This document shows positions 851 to 7,765 of a DNA stretch of 64,000 bases, piece after piece. This stretch comes from Octopus vulgaris (taxonomy: Eukaryota): the NCBI GenBank assembly GCA_951406725.2, contig OX597814.1, positions 174,468,001-174,532,000 of the forward strand, given 5' to 3'. The translations under genes and the position numbers were made by a program. The notes under the pieces are model-generated. The model was not told the origin of the DNA, made no database searches, and saw only the letters and a program-made list of their open reading frames with translations. Position 1 is the first letter of the stretch. The number at the start of each line of letters is the position of its first letter.

Positions 851-903
<53 letters not shown>

Positions 904-906
<3 letters not shown>

Positions 907-1097
907 CTTCAAATCCAATATATTAGTGGCACAGTGAAAACTTGTAAAACATTGCAAAGATTCTCCATCTGAGAATCTTTAGTTGAATAGATGCACGCAC
1001 TTGAGTGTGTGCATCTCTTGAACTCTCTTATAAGAACTTAAGTAAAACTCAAGAAAAATCACACACACATATGCACGCACACCCACTCACGCGCGCG

Positions 1098-1100
<3 letters not shown>
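904..1100 (+). mobile_element. 5'-truncated R4/Dong-like LINE 3' end, subfamily A (second copy 1621-1815)
   Basis: YLQIQYISGTVKTCKTLQRFSI* aligns with RLQIQAITGTVKIRKTLQKFK at the end of the long element. Confidence 0.75.
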
Positions 1101-1131
<31 letters not shown>

Positions 1132-1194
1132 TACATACATACATACATACATACATACATACATACATACATACATACATACATACATACATAC

Positions 1195-1410
1195 CAACCC
1201 GTCTGGAGCCAAATATAGTTGAACTTGGGCTTTTGGGAGAGAGAAAGCAAGCCCTTACACGATAAATGATTACGATATCTAGGACTATAAAAATCTACAA
1301 GACCTTAAGATTTAAAGAATGATGAACAAAGCAAGATCCTTTCCCTGGCAACGTTGCTACCATGTGGCCGGTCTAAAATTAACTCTAAATTAAAACGAGA
1401 AAAAGAACAC
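1195..1410 (+). mobile_element. 5'-truncated R4/Dong-like LINE 3' end, subfamily B (second copy 1926-2140)
   Basis: [41 protein letters not shown] weakly aligns with the same C-terminus; different 3' UTR. Confidence 0.6.
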
Positions 1411-1592
1411 ATACATACACACATACATACACACACACATACACACACACACATACATGCACATACACACACACATACATACATACATACATACATACAT
1501 ACATACATTACACACATGCACGCACGCACACACACACACACACACACATACATACATACATACATACATACATACATACATACATACATACA

Positions 1593-1623
<31 letters not shown>

Positions 1624-1814
1624 CTTCAAATCCAATATATTAGTGGCACAGTGAAAACTTGTAAAACATTCCAAAGATTCTCCATCTGAGAATCTTTAGT
1701 TGAATAGATGCACGCACTTGAGTGTGTGCATCTCTTGAACTCTCTTATAAGAACTTAAGTAAAACTCAAGAAAAATCACACACACATATGCACGCACACC
1801 CACTCACGCGCGCG

Positions 1815-1850
<36 letters not shown>

Positions 1851-3088
1851 TACATACATACATACATACATACATACATACATACATACATACATACATA
1901 CATACATACATACATACATACATACCAACCCGTCTGGAGCCAAATATAGTTGAACTTGGGCTTTTGGGAGAGAGAAAGCAAGCCCTTACACGATAAATGA
2001 TTACGATATCTAGGACTACAAAAATCTACAAGACCTTAAGATTTAAAGAATGATGAACAAAGCAAGATCCTTTTCCTGGCAACGTTGCTACCATGTGGCC
2101 GGTCTAAAATTAACTCTAAATTAAAACGAGAAAAAGAACACATACATACACACATACATACACACACACATACACACACACACATACATGCACATACACA
2201 CACACATACATACATACATACATACATACATACATACATACATACATACATACATACATACATTACACACACGCACGCACGCACACACACACACACACAC
2301 ACACGCACACACACACATACATACATACATACATACATACATACATACATACATACATACATACATACATACATACATACATACATACATACATACATAC
2401 ATACATACATACATACATAGAGATAGCTGATTTACAGAAAGCCATCAGCCATGTGATGATGCTTATTGCTTGTAAACAAGCAAATCACTTTACGTCTCAC
2501 CAACACAAAGTGAAGGAGATAGAAGTGATATTTGCAGATAACAACAAGAGAACATACAATTGCAAACTGATCAGCCTCAAGTAGGAACTGAAAGCTGTCA
2601 TTGGGAAACTCCGACACCAGAAGAGGATAACCGAGAGAAAAACAATAAACAAAACGTTTAACCGGAACCAGGCAGCAGTGTGCAGAGACATGAGAGGAGA
2701 AGCCGTTTAACCGGAACCAGGCAGCAGTGTGCAGAGACATGAGAGGAGAAGCAGTGAACATCACAGAAGATCCTTCACGAGAAGACATAGACTGTTTCTG
2801 GAGGATAATCTGGAGCGAAGAGATGGAGTTTAACCAAGATGCTTTGTGGCTGGAAGAAATTCGAAGAAGTTATTGTCCCTGAATTACACTCAAGATATAC
2901 AACATTGATAGTGATACCCTTGTGACTGTAATACATGATGGAAAAGCATCTGCAAGAGACTTGATTGTTGGATACTGGTACAAGTATCTAATAGTCTACC
3001 GACCATATCTTATCAACCTGTATCAGCAAGCTCTTAATGGGAATAGCAACATACCAGACTAGTTAGCTCTGGTAGAAACAAAACTTTT

Positions 3089-3313
3089 AAGGCGGCGAGC
3101 TGGCAGAATCGTTAGCATGCCGGGCGAAATGCTTAGCAGTATTTCGTCTGCCGCTACGTTCTGAGTTCAAATTCCGTCGAGGTCGACTTTGCCTTTCATC
3201 CTTTTGGAGTCGATAAATTAAGTACCAGTTACGCACTGAGGTTGATGTAATCGACTTAATCCCTTTGTTTGTCCCCTCTGTGTTTAGCCCCTTGTGGGCA
3301 ATAAAGAAATAAA
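3089..3313 (+). mobile_element. tRNA-derived SINE family A inserted in the LINE RT
   Basis: GAGCTGGCAGAA head, GAGTTCAAATTCC B-box, GCCTTTCATCCTTT..GTCGATAAA..AGTACCAG body; ACAAAACT repeated at 3078 and 3316. Confidence 0.9.
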
Positions 3314-3399
3314 AGACAAAACTGATCCCCAAAGGCAGAACCAGCCACATGACAAAAAACTACCGGCCAATTGCGTGCCAGAACTTAATGTGTAAAAAA

Positions 3400-4400
3400 C
3401 TAGCAAACGCTCCCCGTCCATTGGACGGTTTGTATAGGCGAAGAGGGTTAACTTGGACGATGTTAAGTTGTGGAGATGTGTGGTGATTGTATGGGGTTGT
3501 TACTTTTGTTTAGGGCATTAAAGATTTCTGAGACGTTAAAACTGTTGACTATTTCTTCTAAATAAGGAAAATTGATTGATATTAAACCTTTTCAAAATTG
3601 TCATGAGGCCAATAAAGTGAAGGAAGCTGTTCATCCCACAATATATACAACTTCTAGTGGAATCGGACATCATAATTAACCTTAAACTTTTTGCACTCAA
3701 ACACTTTCACTTTAGGATAAGCACAATGTACTCTTTAGGATAAGCACAATGTACTCATGTTGACACCGATACGTCAAACTGAACGCTGTTTTATCTCCAA
3801 AGTGAACATTGCAAGTAATATTTAAGCAATAAACAGTTCTTTGGCTTTTGCATTTGACGACTGTTGCTTTACATATTTTATTTCGATTTTCACTGGCGTA
3901 GTGGTAAGAACTATGGGATAAATAACATTAGTTTCGAATAAAAATATGAATGGAAGTTTTAATCACCCGATGGACAGGCAAACAAAAACTGCTACTCAAT
4001 AAAGGTGCAAAAATGCTTAGAGAAGTCTCTCTTCTCTCAGAAACTGACACAAAAAGGGTTGAAACTCGGGGGTAAAATAACACAATGTGCAATAAAATAA
4101 CATAAAGCATGTTCTTTGCAAATCAATTTTAACTCAAAAATTGAACAATACCGCATATTTTTTAAGTTGGATGAGAAACGTTAGTCAAGGTTTTAGACGT
4201 AACCCTACAAAGTTTTCACGTTTTATAAGCAATCAGTTAGTCTTTTCTACTTTGTTGAGAATATCTTCAGAAAATTGAGTTATTTATTTGCTTTATTTTC
4301 ACTTTTTTGGTCACTTAAAGTAACTGCCTTTTCCTTATAGCTTTTCATGTCAGCTGGTTTATTGTACGAAAAACAGCCGTAAGAACACATTTGACCGCGG
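3400..4400 (-). mobile_element. Non-autonomous Helitron nested in the LINE (5' end uncertain)
   Basis: Minus-strand 3' end CCGTCCAATGGACGG hairpin, short spacer, CTAG|T at 3400; LINE frame resumes ~4412. Confidence 0.65.
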
Positions 4401-6025
4401 ATGCTCGTGGTAAGCCTTTGACTCTGTACCTCACTCATGAATTCTAGAAGCCCTTCGACTTGCTAAAGATGCAGTGAGCATAATCAAAGCCATAGCTGAC
4501 ATGACTTTATCGTGGGCCACCATCTTGAAGTTAGATACAAGGACTGATTGTATTACCATTGATAGAATACAGTATCGCAGAGGTATATTCCTAGGAGACA
4601 ACCTGTGTTGTTTATACTTTCTGTACAGCCCTTGTCATACACGCGAAGGAAGTCTGAAGGGTATCTCACTTGTTCACAAGGAAACAGAAATACCAAAATT
4701 ACATACCGTTTCTTTGTGAATGGTTTGGAAACGAAAACAAGTAGGCAGAAGCTTAACATCGATCCAGATTGCCTTTGGATGCCGTATCATATCCATTAGC
4801 AACATCTTTTAACCACCAAGTGTCGAAGTGCATCCCTTGACCAAGTTTGTATACACGAGGCTGATAACATCATGAAACTTGAAAAGCAGCTAACCTTAAA
4901 TACATGCCCAAAGAAGCCACAAAACTCTACCGCAATGTATCAATAGATGAAAAGATGAGCGCATATCAGCAAAAGATCATGCATGGATACGTTAGCAGCA
5001 AGCCCCGGGATTATAGTAACAATGATCATCGAAGCAGTTTATCACGGCCCAACAACCGGATAACTAACTCCTACTTTGAAGGGTGTTATATCCAGGAACA
5101 GGAAATATCAACCAAATACCTGATGCACATAAAAAAATAGAGACGCAGGAAAAGCAGCAAAATGTGATAACCGATGTAGACTTTGTGGAGTTAACACCGA
5201 AGATATCACCCACATCATAAGCAGTTGTCCGAAAATGTCATGGCAGTATTATCTACTGATGAGACATGATGCTGTAGCCAAGACACTGTATACTGAGATC
5301 CATCGAAAGGATAACCCTGAGGCCAAAGAAATAAGAACCCACAATATGGTAGAAACCATAGCTACTCATAATAAAGAGGAGTACTGGAAATGTCCCAGTG
5401 AAAACCTTACTAAAATGTAAACATAATATATCTGACATAATGACTTGGGATAAGGGAAACTGTGTACAGTTGTGGAAATCAGCTGCCCTGCGGATGTTAG
5501 CATAAAGCTTAAAGATCAGTGAAAAAGAACCAAATCAAAATTTCACTTAGGAGTTTACTTCTTGTTCATCGGTGTTCTTTATAGCACATTTAATTCCATT
5601 AACCAATCACAAGGACGTTAGTGAAATGCTACTCTGTCTTGAAGAGCCTTCAAAATAAAGAAAAAAAGTTATAAGTTCGGCGCGAACGTATATGTCAATG
5701 AAAAAGAAAATACCTACGCTGAACAATTGAGAAATCTACAGTTACTCTACTCAGCTTACAAGCTCAGGTTTATACCTGTAATTATTGGGGGCACTGGAAT
5801 ATGTAACACACTGCCAAAGTAACAATCTTGAAAAATTAAGCTTCTCAAAACCAGAAAGGAGAAAAGTGATTCGAAGACTACAGATCCAAGCCATCACTGG
5901 AACTGTAAAAATCCGTAAAACTCTCCAGAAGTTTAAGTATATATGCGCATGCAACTATATGCATGAGAATACACACATAAAGCAAAATATACAAATCTGC
6001 ACATGCACTGACCCCAAATATTGCA

Positions 6026-6034
6026 TACATACAT

Positions 6035-6071
<37 letters not shown>

Positions 6072-6162
6072 CATACATACATACATACATACATACATAC
6101 ATACATACATACATACATACATACATACATACATACATACATACATACATACATACATACAT
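6026..6162. repeat. (CA)n/(TACA)n microsatellite at LINE 3' end
   Basis: Direct observation. Confidence 0.95.
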
Positions 6163-7765
6163 CACTGTTGATGTTAAAATTCCAATGAATGAGCCTTAAA
6201 TCTAGGTTAGAAACCAGATCTGTCGCTATTGACTAAATATCTTGAAATAAAACTGAATAATGACATACATACATATGTAGATGAACGAGAGACTCAGAGT
6301 TCAAACACCGCCGAGATCAACTTTATCTTTTATCCATTTAGGGTCGATAAAATAAATACCAGTGAACACTGTGGGGTCAATGTAATTGACACGCCACTCC
6401 CGAAATTGCTAAAATTTGAAACCTTTATTTTTCGGTACCACAAGGCAATGAACTGGCTGTTTGGTGCCACTTTAACGAGCGGTCGACCTGGCCATATACA
6501 CTTTAGCGTGTAGTCTACCCTAAATTCTGTGTCCTAATCCTAACCCAGATCAGTTCTTTTCACAGAATAGACTACGGATACTGGAATGTACCCGCACACA
6601 AATGTAACATCTATTTTTCTTTTTCATTGGCAAGCATAGAAGATATCGCGCCGAACATACAACTTTTTTTTCTTCATTTTGAAGGCTCTTCAACACACAA
6701 TAGCATTTCACTAACGTCCTTGTGATTGGTTAATGAAATTAAATGAACACCGACTCCTGTTAAGTGAAATCTGTTGACCCGCAGCTATCTTTATCTCCCG
6801 CAGCTACCTTTATCTCCCGCAGCTACTTTTATCTGTGTACGACCTTCATGGCCAATTCGATGAAATAAAGTGAAATCTGTTGATTAGGTTCAAATCATTC
6901 CATTAGTTTACTTTTTTTTCCCCACTCTACAGCGGTAGAGCGGTGGATTTGATGCCTTGTATTTTTTAGTCACGTCCTTCCACTTCAAGTTCCAATCATG
7001 CCGAGATTGACTTAGCTTTTTATTCTTCTGTGATCCATAAATCAAGTACCAGTCCAGCAGAGAACTCATAAAATTGATTATACCTTTTCTTCTAAATGTG
7101 TGATCTAGTGTCCGATATTAGTGGTTTGGGTGTTCGTTTCATGGTCACTAGGTCGTGCTTTCGATTCTCGAACTAGGCAGTGCTCTGTGTCCTTCATTTT
7201 ATGGTGTTTCAGTCCACTCAGTTGAAAATGATTATCAGCGATAGCTGGGGTGGGGTGGGGGCAACTGTGTGACGGTCTGACGTCCCATCTAAAAAGAGTC
7301 TTGTATTTCCAGTCGCTTAAACGGCATAGAAGCCAAAAGATCGACCTTACTGTGTCTGTCGGGTAGAGTCAGACATCAACTATTTTTTAGCCTTTATATT
7401 TAGGAATACCTGGAATGCAGCTGAAGCTACGAAATGTTCTGCTTTTGATTGTCTGTTTACCACATTCATTAAGGTGTAACTTTTTGTATACTTTTTGTGC
7501 TTTTGAGTTTTTCTTCTCATTTCTTCAGCAACGTGAAGCCTTGTTGATATTTGGGGTGACCGCTTGGAGAACTTAGATGCTGTTAGCAAAACCTGTAGTT
7601 TTTTCTCAATGGCGGTGCCCCAGCATGGCCGTAGCTTACGGACTGAAGTAAAAGATAACAAATAAAAGATACACCTAAATTATATATAATTTTGTATTGA
7701 GAAACCATCGTTATAAGAGTAATAGTTTTGAATTAAATATATATATATATATATGTGTGTGTGTA

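Follow-up and report, generated by a model that had tools for sequence, protein, structure and literature searches.

Stacked RLE-type LINE families in a (TACA)n microsatellite of Octopus vulgaris and the probable use of four-base repeats as insertion targets

Introduction

The question of how site-specific RLE retrotransposons come to acquire new targets is of practical importance, since R2-type proteins are being developed into gene-insertion tools. At the locus described here, decayed copies of three related LINE families lie head-to-tail, in a single orientation, between runs of one four-base microsatellite. The array occupies positions 906–6263 of the window analysed, a 64,000-nucleotide stretch of O. 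vulgaris contig OX597814.1 (174,468,001–174,532,000, forward strand).

Organisation of the array

The array is built of three families of RLE-type LINE (A, B and C), whose copies, all on the + strand, follow one another in the order A-B-A′-B′-C. TACA runs lie at 852–905, 1098–1194, 1409–1622, 1815–1925, 2140–2419 and 6024–6162. In the feature list, "target" denotes our reading of a tract.

641–851: end of a repeat outside the lineage, upstream of the array, presumably Penelope-like (~20 matches at other loci)
852–905, + strand: (TACA)13 tract, 5′ target half of copy A
906–1059, + strand: family A 3′ fragment, the final 21 codons of the RLE ORF, followed by the 3′ UTR with a ~90-bp internal deletion
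1060–1194, + strand: CA/CATA tail of A and 5′ target of B
1187–1407, + strand: family B 3′ fragment
1408–1622, + strand: CA/CATA tail of B
1623–2138, + strand: second, tandem copy of the A–tail–B unit (99% identity)
2139–2420, + strand: CA/CATA tract, 5′ target of C
2421–6263, + strand: family C LINE, 5′-truncated and decayed, equivalent to positions 1072–4038 of a 4.0-kb element
3084–3312, + strand: abundant SINE-like repeat inserted into C (104 copies in 600 kb)
3396–4411: unassigned 1-kb insertion in C, matching none of the other loci compared
5529–5694: short insertion in C, ~100 bp of which matches window 6646–6745 inverted (92%)
6024–6162, + strand: internal CATA tract of the C 3′ UTR, expanded
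6163–6263, + strand: terminal part of the C 3′ UTR
6264–6275, + strand: (CATA)3, 3′ tail or target half of C

The original prediction had recognised three homologous RLE C-termini in one orientation, each starting directly after TACA, and these are confirmed on the + strand as A (906–1059), B (1187–1407) and C (2421–6263). The first eight bases of B (1187–1194) are common to the TACA tract, giving a junction microhomology. The C copy keeps the RT, CCHC knuckle and RLE, with many frameshifts and stops and a ~490-bp deletion directly after the RT catalytic motif; Pfam searches of the window fragments returned weak zf-RVT matches and nothing else. The predicted stack of several subfamilies holds for three families, with two corrections. 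Firstly, a duplicate of A and B had been overlooked: A′ (1623–1776) shows one difference from A in 151 bp and B′ (1918–2138) two from B in 214 bp, with breakpoints inside TACA tracts, and this tandem repeat may be a real duplication or an assembly artefact. Secondly, a fourth insertion at 6163–6275 is ruled out, the block being C's own 3′ UTR. Elsewhere (copies L064, L067, L070, L079 and L082) a short internal CATA tract joins it directly to the C ORF, and here that tract has grown to ~140 bp. The order A-B-A′-B′-C thus implies three insertions and one duplication.

Strand-specific association with TACA

Each of A, B and C is a multicopy family, with 897, 1261 and 1539 first-look candidates, respectively. 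Copies are 83–90% identical to their family majority, and the shared coding part is 68% identical in nucleotides between A and C and 66% between A and B.

We sampled 112 copies genome-wide, picked by internal sequence, and scored the 5′ junction for a perfect (CATA)3 12-mer. It is present in the sense orientation at 55 junctions and in antisense at 2, against a background of 0.75%; AAT is found at 0/112. Tabulated in this way, as the original prediction had proposed, the flanks and orientations of genomic copies show a strong sense bias and strongly support a strand-specific association with TACA. The sense 12-mer recurs in the sets drawn with family A (9/24), family B (9/23), the C 3′ UTR (7/17), the C knuckle (9/20), the C RT (3/3), the C 5′ motif (15/20) and an Argonauta protein (3/5). 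Since the pattern appears in every query set and at many truncation points, the 5′ CATA does not belong to the element itself. At the 3′ ends the sense 12-mer is found in 47/102 and the antisense in 1/102, and the 4-mer that follows complete C ends is CATA in 27/45. Sense CATA adjoins four other repeats in 0/104, 0/10, 0/32 and 1/14 copies (1/160 in total); for the repeat ending at 641–851 it occurs at neither side of ten random copies. The perfect 12-mer is absent from 57 of the 112 5′ junctions, 42 of them without even an 8-mer, which may reflect age and later insertions or, alternatively, looser targeting.

In the Dong-like families of this genome that are young and intact, AAT marks 15/16 5′ junctions and 16/16 3′ junctions, and CATA 0/16 5′ junctions. 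Such TAA-type families (Y1/Y2) likewise stack within one tract, and the young intact families fit the active Dong-R4 elements reported from O. vulgaris.

Probable insertion into existing tracts

The stack represents three families of a single RLE-LINE clade, lying within (TACA)n in one orientation, and we consider it probable that they do so because the protein of the clade recognises four-base repeats. Judged from sequence, this protein would recognise and nick the TATG strand of such repeats, where the related Dong uses (TAA)n. By analogy with R2/R4 biology, the nick would expose a 3′ end to serve as primer for reverse transcription of the element RNA from its 3′ end, possibly by pairing with a CAUA tail. 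The second strand would often join early, sometimes at a CATA-like microhomology such as that at B 1187–1194. Insertion would thereby split the tract and leave TACA on both sides, so that later families could land beside earlier ones. Slippage may afterwards have lengthened the tracts, and A+B would have been doubled by recombination between two tracts, if not by assembly error.

An alternative is that the elements made their own flanks, inserting where CA/TA-rich sequence was short or matched loosely, and acquiring CATA on both sides through a tail encoded in the RNA, through slippage of the RT or by switching template to another CAUA-tailed RNA, with slippage lengthening the tracts later and each stack arising in a single event. 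Consistent with this, of the 31 complete copies that lack a CATA 8-mer at the 5′ end, 18 carry one at the 3′ end, the C 3′ UTR contains internal CATA, some stacks repeat just the last ~110 bp of C, and a search through paralogous host repeats gave, for 90 copies tested, ten candidate paired flanks and no clean empty site. Against it, a 3′ end of the lineage lies upstream of the tract in only 5 of the 55 copies with a 5′ tract, the perfect runs upstream of copies reach a median of 12 units, compared with 4 in random runs, and stacks, which are common (16 of the 102 complete 3′ ends), combine families of differing apparent age. The TAA-type families also have the same two-sided pattern, which the parts of PMC7998251 and PMC3774820 available to us accept as Dong target use. 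Self-made flanks appear unlikely. A tail that rebuilds its own target, as the prediction proposed, would not be required, since the splitting of an existing tract suffices for TACA on both sides.

The prediction also held that the lineage might feed TACA abundance. ACAT is the commonest tetranucleotide class in a random sample (99 runs/600 kb), and among 105 randomly drawn CATA tracts at least 5 adjoin the lineage (472 of 4288 tract bases), a minimum in view of the gaps in the family library. These figures lend slight support to a contribution and do not support the lineage as the main source of TACA.

Protein architecture and relationships

The protein comprises an N-terminal W..W Myb-like stretch, an RT, a CCHC knuckle and a PD..D/E..K RLE. 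A single ORF with RT, knuckle and RLE in that order is seen in the intact elements L272, L273, L274 and L290, and in the window fragments. The W..W stretch can be aligned with its counterpart in TAA-flanked elements; no zinc finger is visible N-terminally, and Pfam gives no Myb hit. Two features mark the clade: a C-terminal helix distinct from that of TAA-type elements, and an RRPNRDY-like motif conserved ahead of the Myb-like stretch. No APE family hit was obtained in ten aligned ORFs, which carry the C-terminal RLE motif instead. Ribozyme scans matched no family in L214, L272 or L273, nor in the TAA-type control L228, so that the scan is insensitive here; scans of the repeats gave sub-threshold microRNA-family matches only.

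Among the matches listed (150, 142, 150 and 150), no intact clade member was found in the O. vulgaris genome, the longest open frame being 574 codons. In a further search all ten best matches contained stops, and the 20 long-ORF loci taken were of the TAA-tailed kind. On these searches, which scored the best candidates only, the clade seems to have died out in O. vulgaris. Intact relatives are found elsewhere. Of eight metagenome loci 44–52% identical to a clade query, six have a tetranucleotide tract: L272 and L273 (open frames of 1179 and 1217 codons) have CATA at both ends, L274 has CTTA at both ends, and L282, L283 and L290 have CTTA at the single end reached. The other two show no tract, their contigs ending early.

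Together with the Argonauta protein and the intact metagenome elements flanked by (CATA)n or (CTTA)n, families A, B and C make up a clade apart from TAA-flanked elements, with strong support (99 SH-aLRT in the RT tree; 100/100 in the C-terminal region tree). In the C-terminal tree, B pairs with Argonauta P0260 and the A copies fall inside the tetranucleotide clade. The clade's own position varies, beside the AAT-flanked L288/L294 in the RT tree and apart from both in the C-terminal tree. These trees contain TAA-flanked Dong-like proxies and APE-type outgroups, so that membership of R4, as predicted and which we regard as likely, rests on proxies in place of reference R4, Dong, R2, NeSL, HERO and CRE sequences. 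The clade groups among or beside these proxies; the (TAA)n insertion typical of Dong in the strict sense is not seen in it.

Could the targeting be real and the clade nevertheless lie outside R4/Dong, for instance with HERO or NeSL? The clade stem is long, RT identity to TAA-type elements is only ~40%, the trees are built on proxies, and some HERO families and Togen are described as targeting microsatellites (PMC4640811, in part). However, Dong-like proteins match over the whole length in homologue searches, whereas solved R2 proteins match weakly (best E 3e-28), and a W..W Myb-like stretch in place of an N-terminal zinc finger is as described for R4/Dong (PMC7998251, in part). We think such a placement quite unlikely.

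That there is no targeting at all, copies having gathered or survived near TACA in repeat-rich regions or deletions between tracts having later made the junctions, would suit the abundance of ACAT and the old, fragmented state of the copies, but is very improbable given the strand bias (55 vs 2), the controls (1/160 for other repeats, 0/16 for TAA-type families) and intact elements from unrelated samples with a tract at both ends.

Comparison with known systems

In the sources as available in part, Dong of Bombyx mori, DongAg, DongBg and other R4/Dong LINEs are (TAA)n-specific (PMC3812793, PMC7998251), and Dong has an HDV-like ribozyme at its 5′ end (PMC3774820). Like Dong, the present elements encode RT, CCHC knuckle and RLE in one ORF behind a putatively Myb-like N-terminus; they too lie in fixed orientation between microsatellite tracts, with several families stacked per tract. 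They differ from Dong in their probable target, a four-base repeat (TACA, or TACT in other members), and in forming the separate, well-supported clade with the RT divergence, C-terminal helix and RRPNRDY-like motif noted above. Because the relatives of A, B and C, both in this genome and, intact, in other organisms, are flanked by TACA or TACT where known Dong elements have TAA, it is likely that the branch changed its landing site from TAA.

Waldo (WaldoAg1/2, WaldoFs1), of the R1 clade, is described as ACAY-specific (PMC3812793, in part). Its target overlaps (ACAT)n and its enzyme is APE-type; as the nuclease here is a C-terminal RLE, a shared (ACAT)n-like target would be convergent. Togen, an RLE element described as targeting (TG)n, and some microsatellite-specific HERO families (PMC4640811, in part) resemble the clade as RLE LINEs with microsatellite targets, Togen differing in the repeat used. 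No TACA- or TACT-targeting RLE element was found in the literature searched, Repbase being outside its scope. Targeting of microsatellites by RLE LINEs is already known, and TACA and TACT would, on sequence grounds, add further targets to it.

For O. vulgaris, 51 "Dong-R4" families spanning 92.7 Mb, five of them young, have been reported (PMC13282606, in part); this annotation probably includes families A, B and C under one label. The word "target" is absent from PMC13282606, and the searched parts of the coleoid repeat survey PMC8967140 give no Dong target. In the text consulted, neither source distinguishes a TACA from a TAA lineage.

Implications

The large octopus "Dong-R4" fraction would then comprise at least two lineages that share out microsatellite space between them, a young one and one that has apparently died out. 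Whether the elements belong to an undescribed, widespread RLE clade that moved from (TAA)n to (TACW)n, with TACA and TACT sub-branches, intact members elsewhere, at least four fossil octopod families and a ~570-bp non-coding passenger using the same tracts, is a matter on which we are evenly divided. Three apparent target states (TAA, TACA and TACT) are distributed over a tree of similar single-ORF proteins, and two of the states occur side by side in one genome. With intact natural members for each state, domain swaps and nicking assays would be straightforward, and the clade, were that wider reading correct, would offer a natural series for finding which residues determine the period and the sequence of the repeat that an RLE element targets.

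Layout of the array

The TACA runs and the three homologous RLE C-termini are present where the original prediction had placed them. They belong to decayed copies of three RLE-type LINE families, A, B and C.

Lineage copies in the window, aligned to family references
906-1059, + strand, family A copy
1187-1407, + strand, family B copy
1623-1776, + strand, A' (second A copy)
1918-2138, + strand, B' (second B copy)
2421-6263, + strand, family C copy

A' and B' together are a tandem duplicate of A and B, 99% alike, with breakpoints inside TACA tracts. The C copy is 5'-truncated and interrupted by three insertions, and ~490 bp are missing from it downstream of the RT catalytic motif. A block at 6163-6275 had been taken for a fourth element, but in other copies the ORF is followed by a short CATA tract (the TACA repeat in another phase) and then by this same block, so that 6163-6263 is the terminal part of the C 3' UTR. 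The array therefore represents three element insertions plus a duplication rather than four insertions. Within C, a 49-bp perfect tandem duplication is seen at 2655-2752, and the 1-kb insert at 3396-4411 has no match among the other fetched loci.

Strand-specific association with TACA

Copies were sought throughout the 2.8-Gb genome and selected by internal DNA or protein alone, junction sequence not being used. This gave 140 focal copies, from which we set aside 2 duplicates, 14 whose 5' end was not reached by the locus or the reference, and 12 that start at the internal CATA tract of C. A perfect sense CATA 12-mer lies within 52 bp upstream of the 5' junction in 55 of the remaining 112 copies and an antisense one in 2, against a background of 0.75% (20,000 random windows, 600 kb of arbitrary positions); AAT is found upstream in 0/112. 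The predicted strand-specific association of the lineage with TACA is thus borne out. The CATA 8-mer is sense at 70/112 junctions and antisense at 4/112. Complete 3' ends number 102, with one locus entering twice; 47 of them have the sense 12-mer and 1 has the antisense. Truncation points are scattered along the element, and the 5' tract therefore does not belong to the element itself. Four other repeats of the random sample, three of which we take to be CR1, RTE and Penelope, gave 0/104, 0/10, 0/32 and 1/14 in the same junction test.

Two results count against TACA targeting. Comparison of 90 copies yielded no clean empty site, and about half of the 112 5' junctions are without the perfect 12-mer.

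Families flanked by AAT repeats provide an internal control. Many intact ORFs of 940-1350 codons, at 32-37% identity, were retrieved with an Argonauta protein query. The twenty intact-ORF loci fetched represent two young families, with within-family identity of 98-99.8% (8 copies compared); four were dropped from the junction count because the reference stops short of their 5' end. AAT is present at 15/16 5' junctions and 16/16 3' ends, with CATA at 0/16 5' junctions, and these two families behave like classical Dong. The Dong-like families that target TAA at loci L222-L241 are young and intact, with ORFs of up to 1344 codons, and form stacks in AAT tracts together with several other TAA families. 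In the TACA families, which are old, median identity to the family majority is 90% (C), 86% (A) and 83% (B), and no intact copy of their clade is among the top-scoring candidates of the genome searches.

Stacking and TACA abundance

At 16 of the 102 complete 3' ends, nothing but repeat DNA separates the copy from a further lineage piece, the pairs being of mixed family; a lineage end lies upstream in 5 of the 55 copies preceded by a CATA tract. Neighbouring pieces lie on the majority strand in 56 cases and on the opposite strand in 6, a count that leans towards agreement; several C-C pairs repeating only the last ~110 bp may be local duplications. Inverted TATG/CATA arrangements are seen beside lineage copies at L217:36-1000 and in the 3' flank of L064, the latter including the 3' end of the element in inverted form.

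The further suggestion that the lineage feeds TACA abundance is weakly supported. Six lineage fragments in a random 600 kb contact 5/105 CATA tracts and 472/4288 tract bases; judged with an incomplete family library, the lineage is thus not the main TACA source.

A ~570-bp non-coding element, with a longer variant of ~700-800 bp, also occurs in fixed orientation in CATA tracts (loci L348-L377; L349:1108-1676, L114:3338-4021). It gave 1406 first-look candidates, its copies are 85-97% alike, and comparison with RT proteins, LINE references and Rfam revealed no similarity. The sense 12-mer is found upstream in 15/28 and downstream in 20/28, the antisense in none; some copies have TA-rich flanks instead. 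We regard it as a candidate passenger of the TACA clade, non-autonomous and perhaps of more recent age than family C.

Relatives in other organisms

Scanning metagenomes with the clade alignment yielded 76 loci, 8 of which show 44-52% identity to the query. Two of these, L272 and L273, are flanked by (CATA)n on both sides and each keep an intact ORF; no tetranucleotide tract was seen at L275 or L276. Other clade members carry (CTTA)n in place of (CATA)n, a second four-base target, on both sides (L274) or at the single end reached (L282, L283, L290).

Each tree was built from a subset of the fetched proteins, near-duplicates and long branches being omitted. The RT tree (121 rows, quick search) unites C, the further TACA family E, the Argonauta protein and the 44-52% loci in one clade with support of 99; its labelled rows outside the clade have neither CATA nor CTTA, most having AAT or ATT. 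In the other tree, built by careful search from 290 C-terminal residues of 44 rows, the clade (100/100) takes in all of A, B, C and E, the sister of B is Argonauta P0260, and members with CTTA flanks branch off outside those with CATA flanks. Metagenome flanks of other RLE branches are ATT, the opposite strand of AAT (L292, L303, L304, L322), CT (L300, L314) and AAAT (L278, L280), which suggests further target or orientation switches. Family E, with its variant E2, is a fourth TACA family, absent from the window (L219, L013, L067, L379-L381, L385, L388, L389).

Proposed mechanism and relation to Dong

The single ORF of intact clade members contains a Myb-like W..W stretch, RT, a CCHC knuckle and an RLE motif; no N-terminal zinc finger was found in them. 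By analogy with R2/R4 biology, the TATG strand would be nicked and target-primed reverse transcription would follow. Exact ends fall in phase before CATA in 27/45 (C), 9/22 (B) and 3/9 (A) cases. An RNA-encoded CATA tail is possible, and the 3' CATA 8-mer is kept in 18/31 copies that lack the 5' 8-mer. Insertion would split the tract and leave targets on both sides, which would be sufficient for stacking.

The Dong target is given as TAA, and that of Waldo, an APE-type element, as ACAY (PMC3812793). For most insects, molluscs and cnidarians the Dong target is described as TAA, and the Dong N-terminus as Myb/SANT-like (PMC7998251); a 5' ribozyme is reported in Dong (PMC3774820). Microsatellite-specific families are noted among HERO and Togen (PMC4640811), and reviews (PMC13708176, PMC13580325) cite a survey of RLE elements by Fell et al. 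2025. O. vulgaris Dong-R4 elements are described as abundant and partly young, the available portions of these accounts stating no target (PMC13282606, PMC8967140). The literature searched, as far as its text was available, contains no TACA- or TACT-targeting RLE element; the Fell 2025 supplements, Kojima and Fujiwara 2004, or Repbase could hold one. The clade works like Dong but differs from it in not using TAA, and it probably belongs to the R4 clade. We conclude that a Dong-like RLE clade with a strand-specific four-base target is real, supported both within this genome and across organisms.
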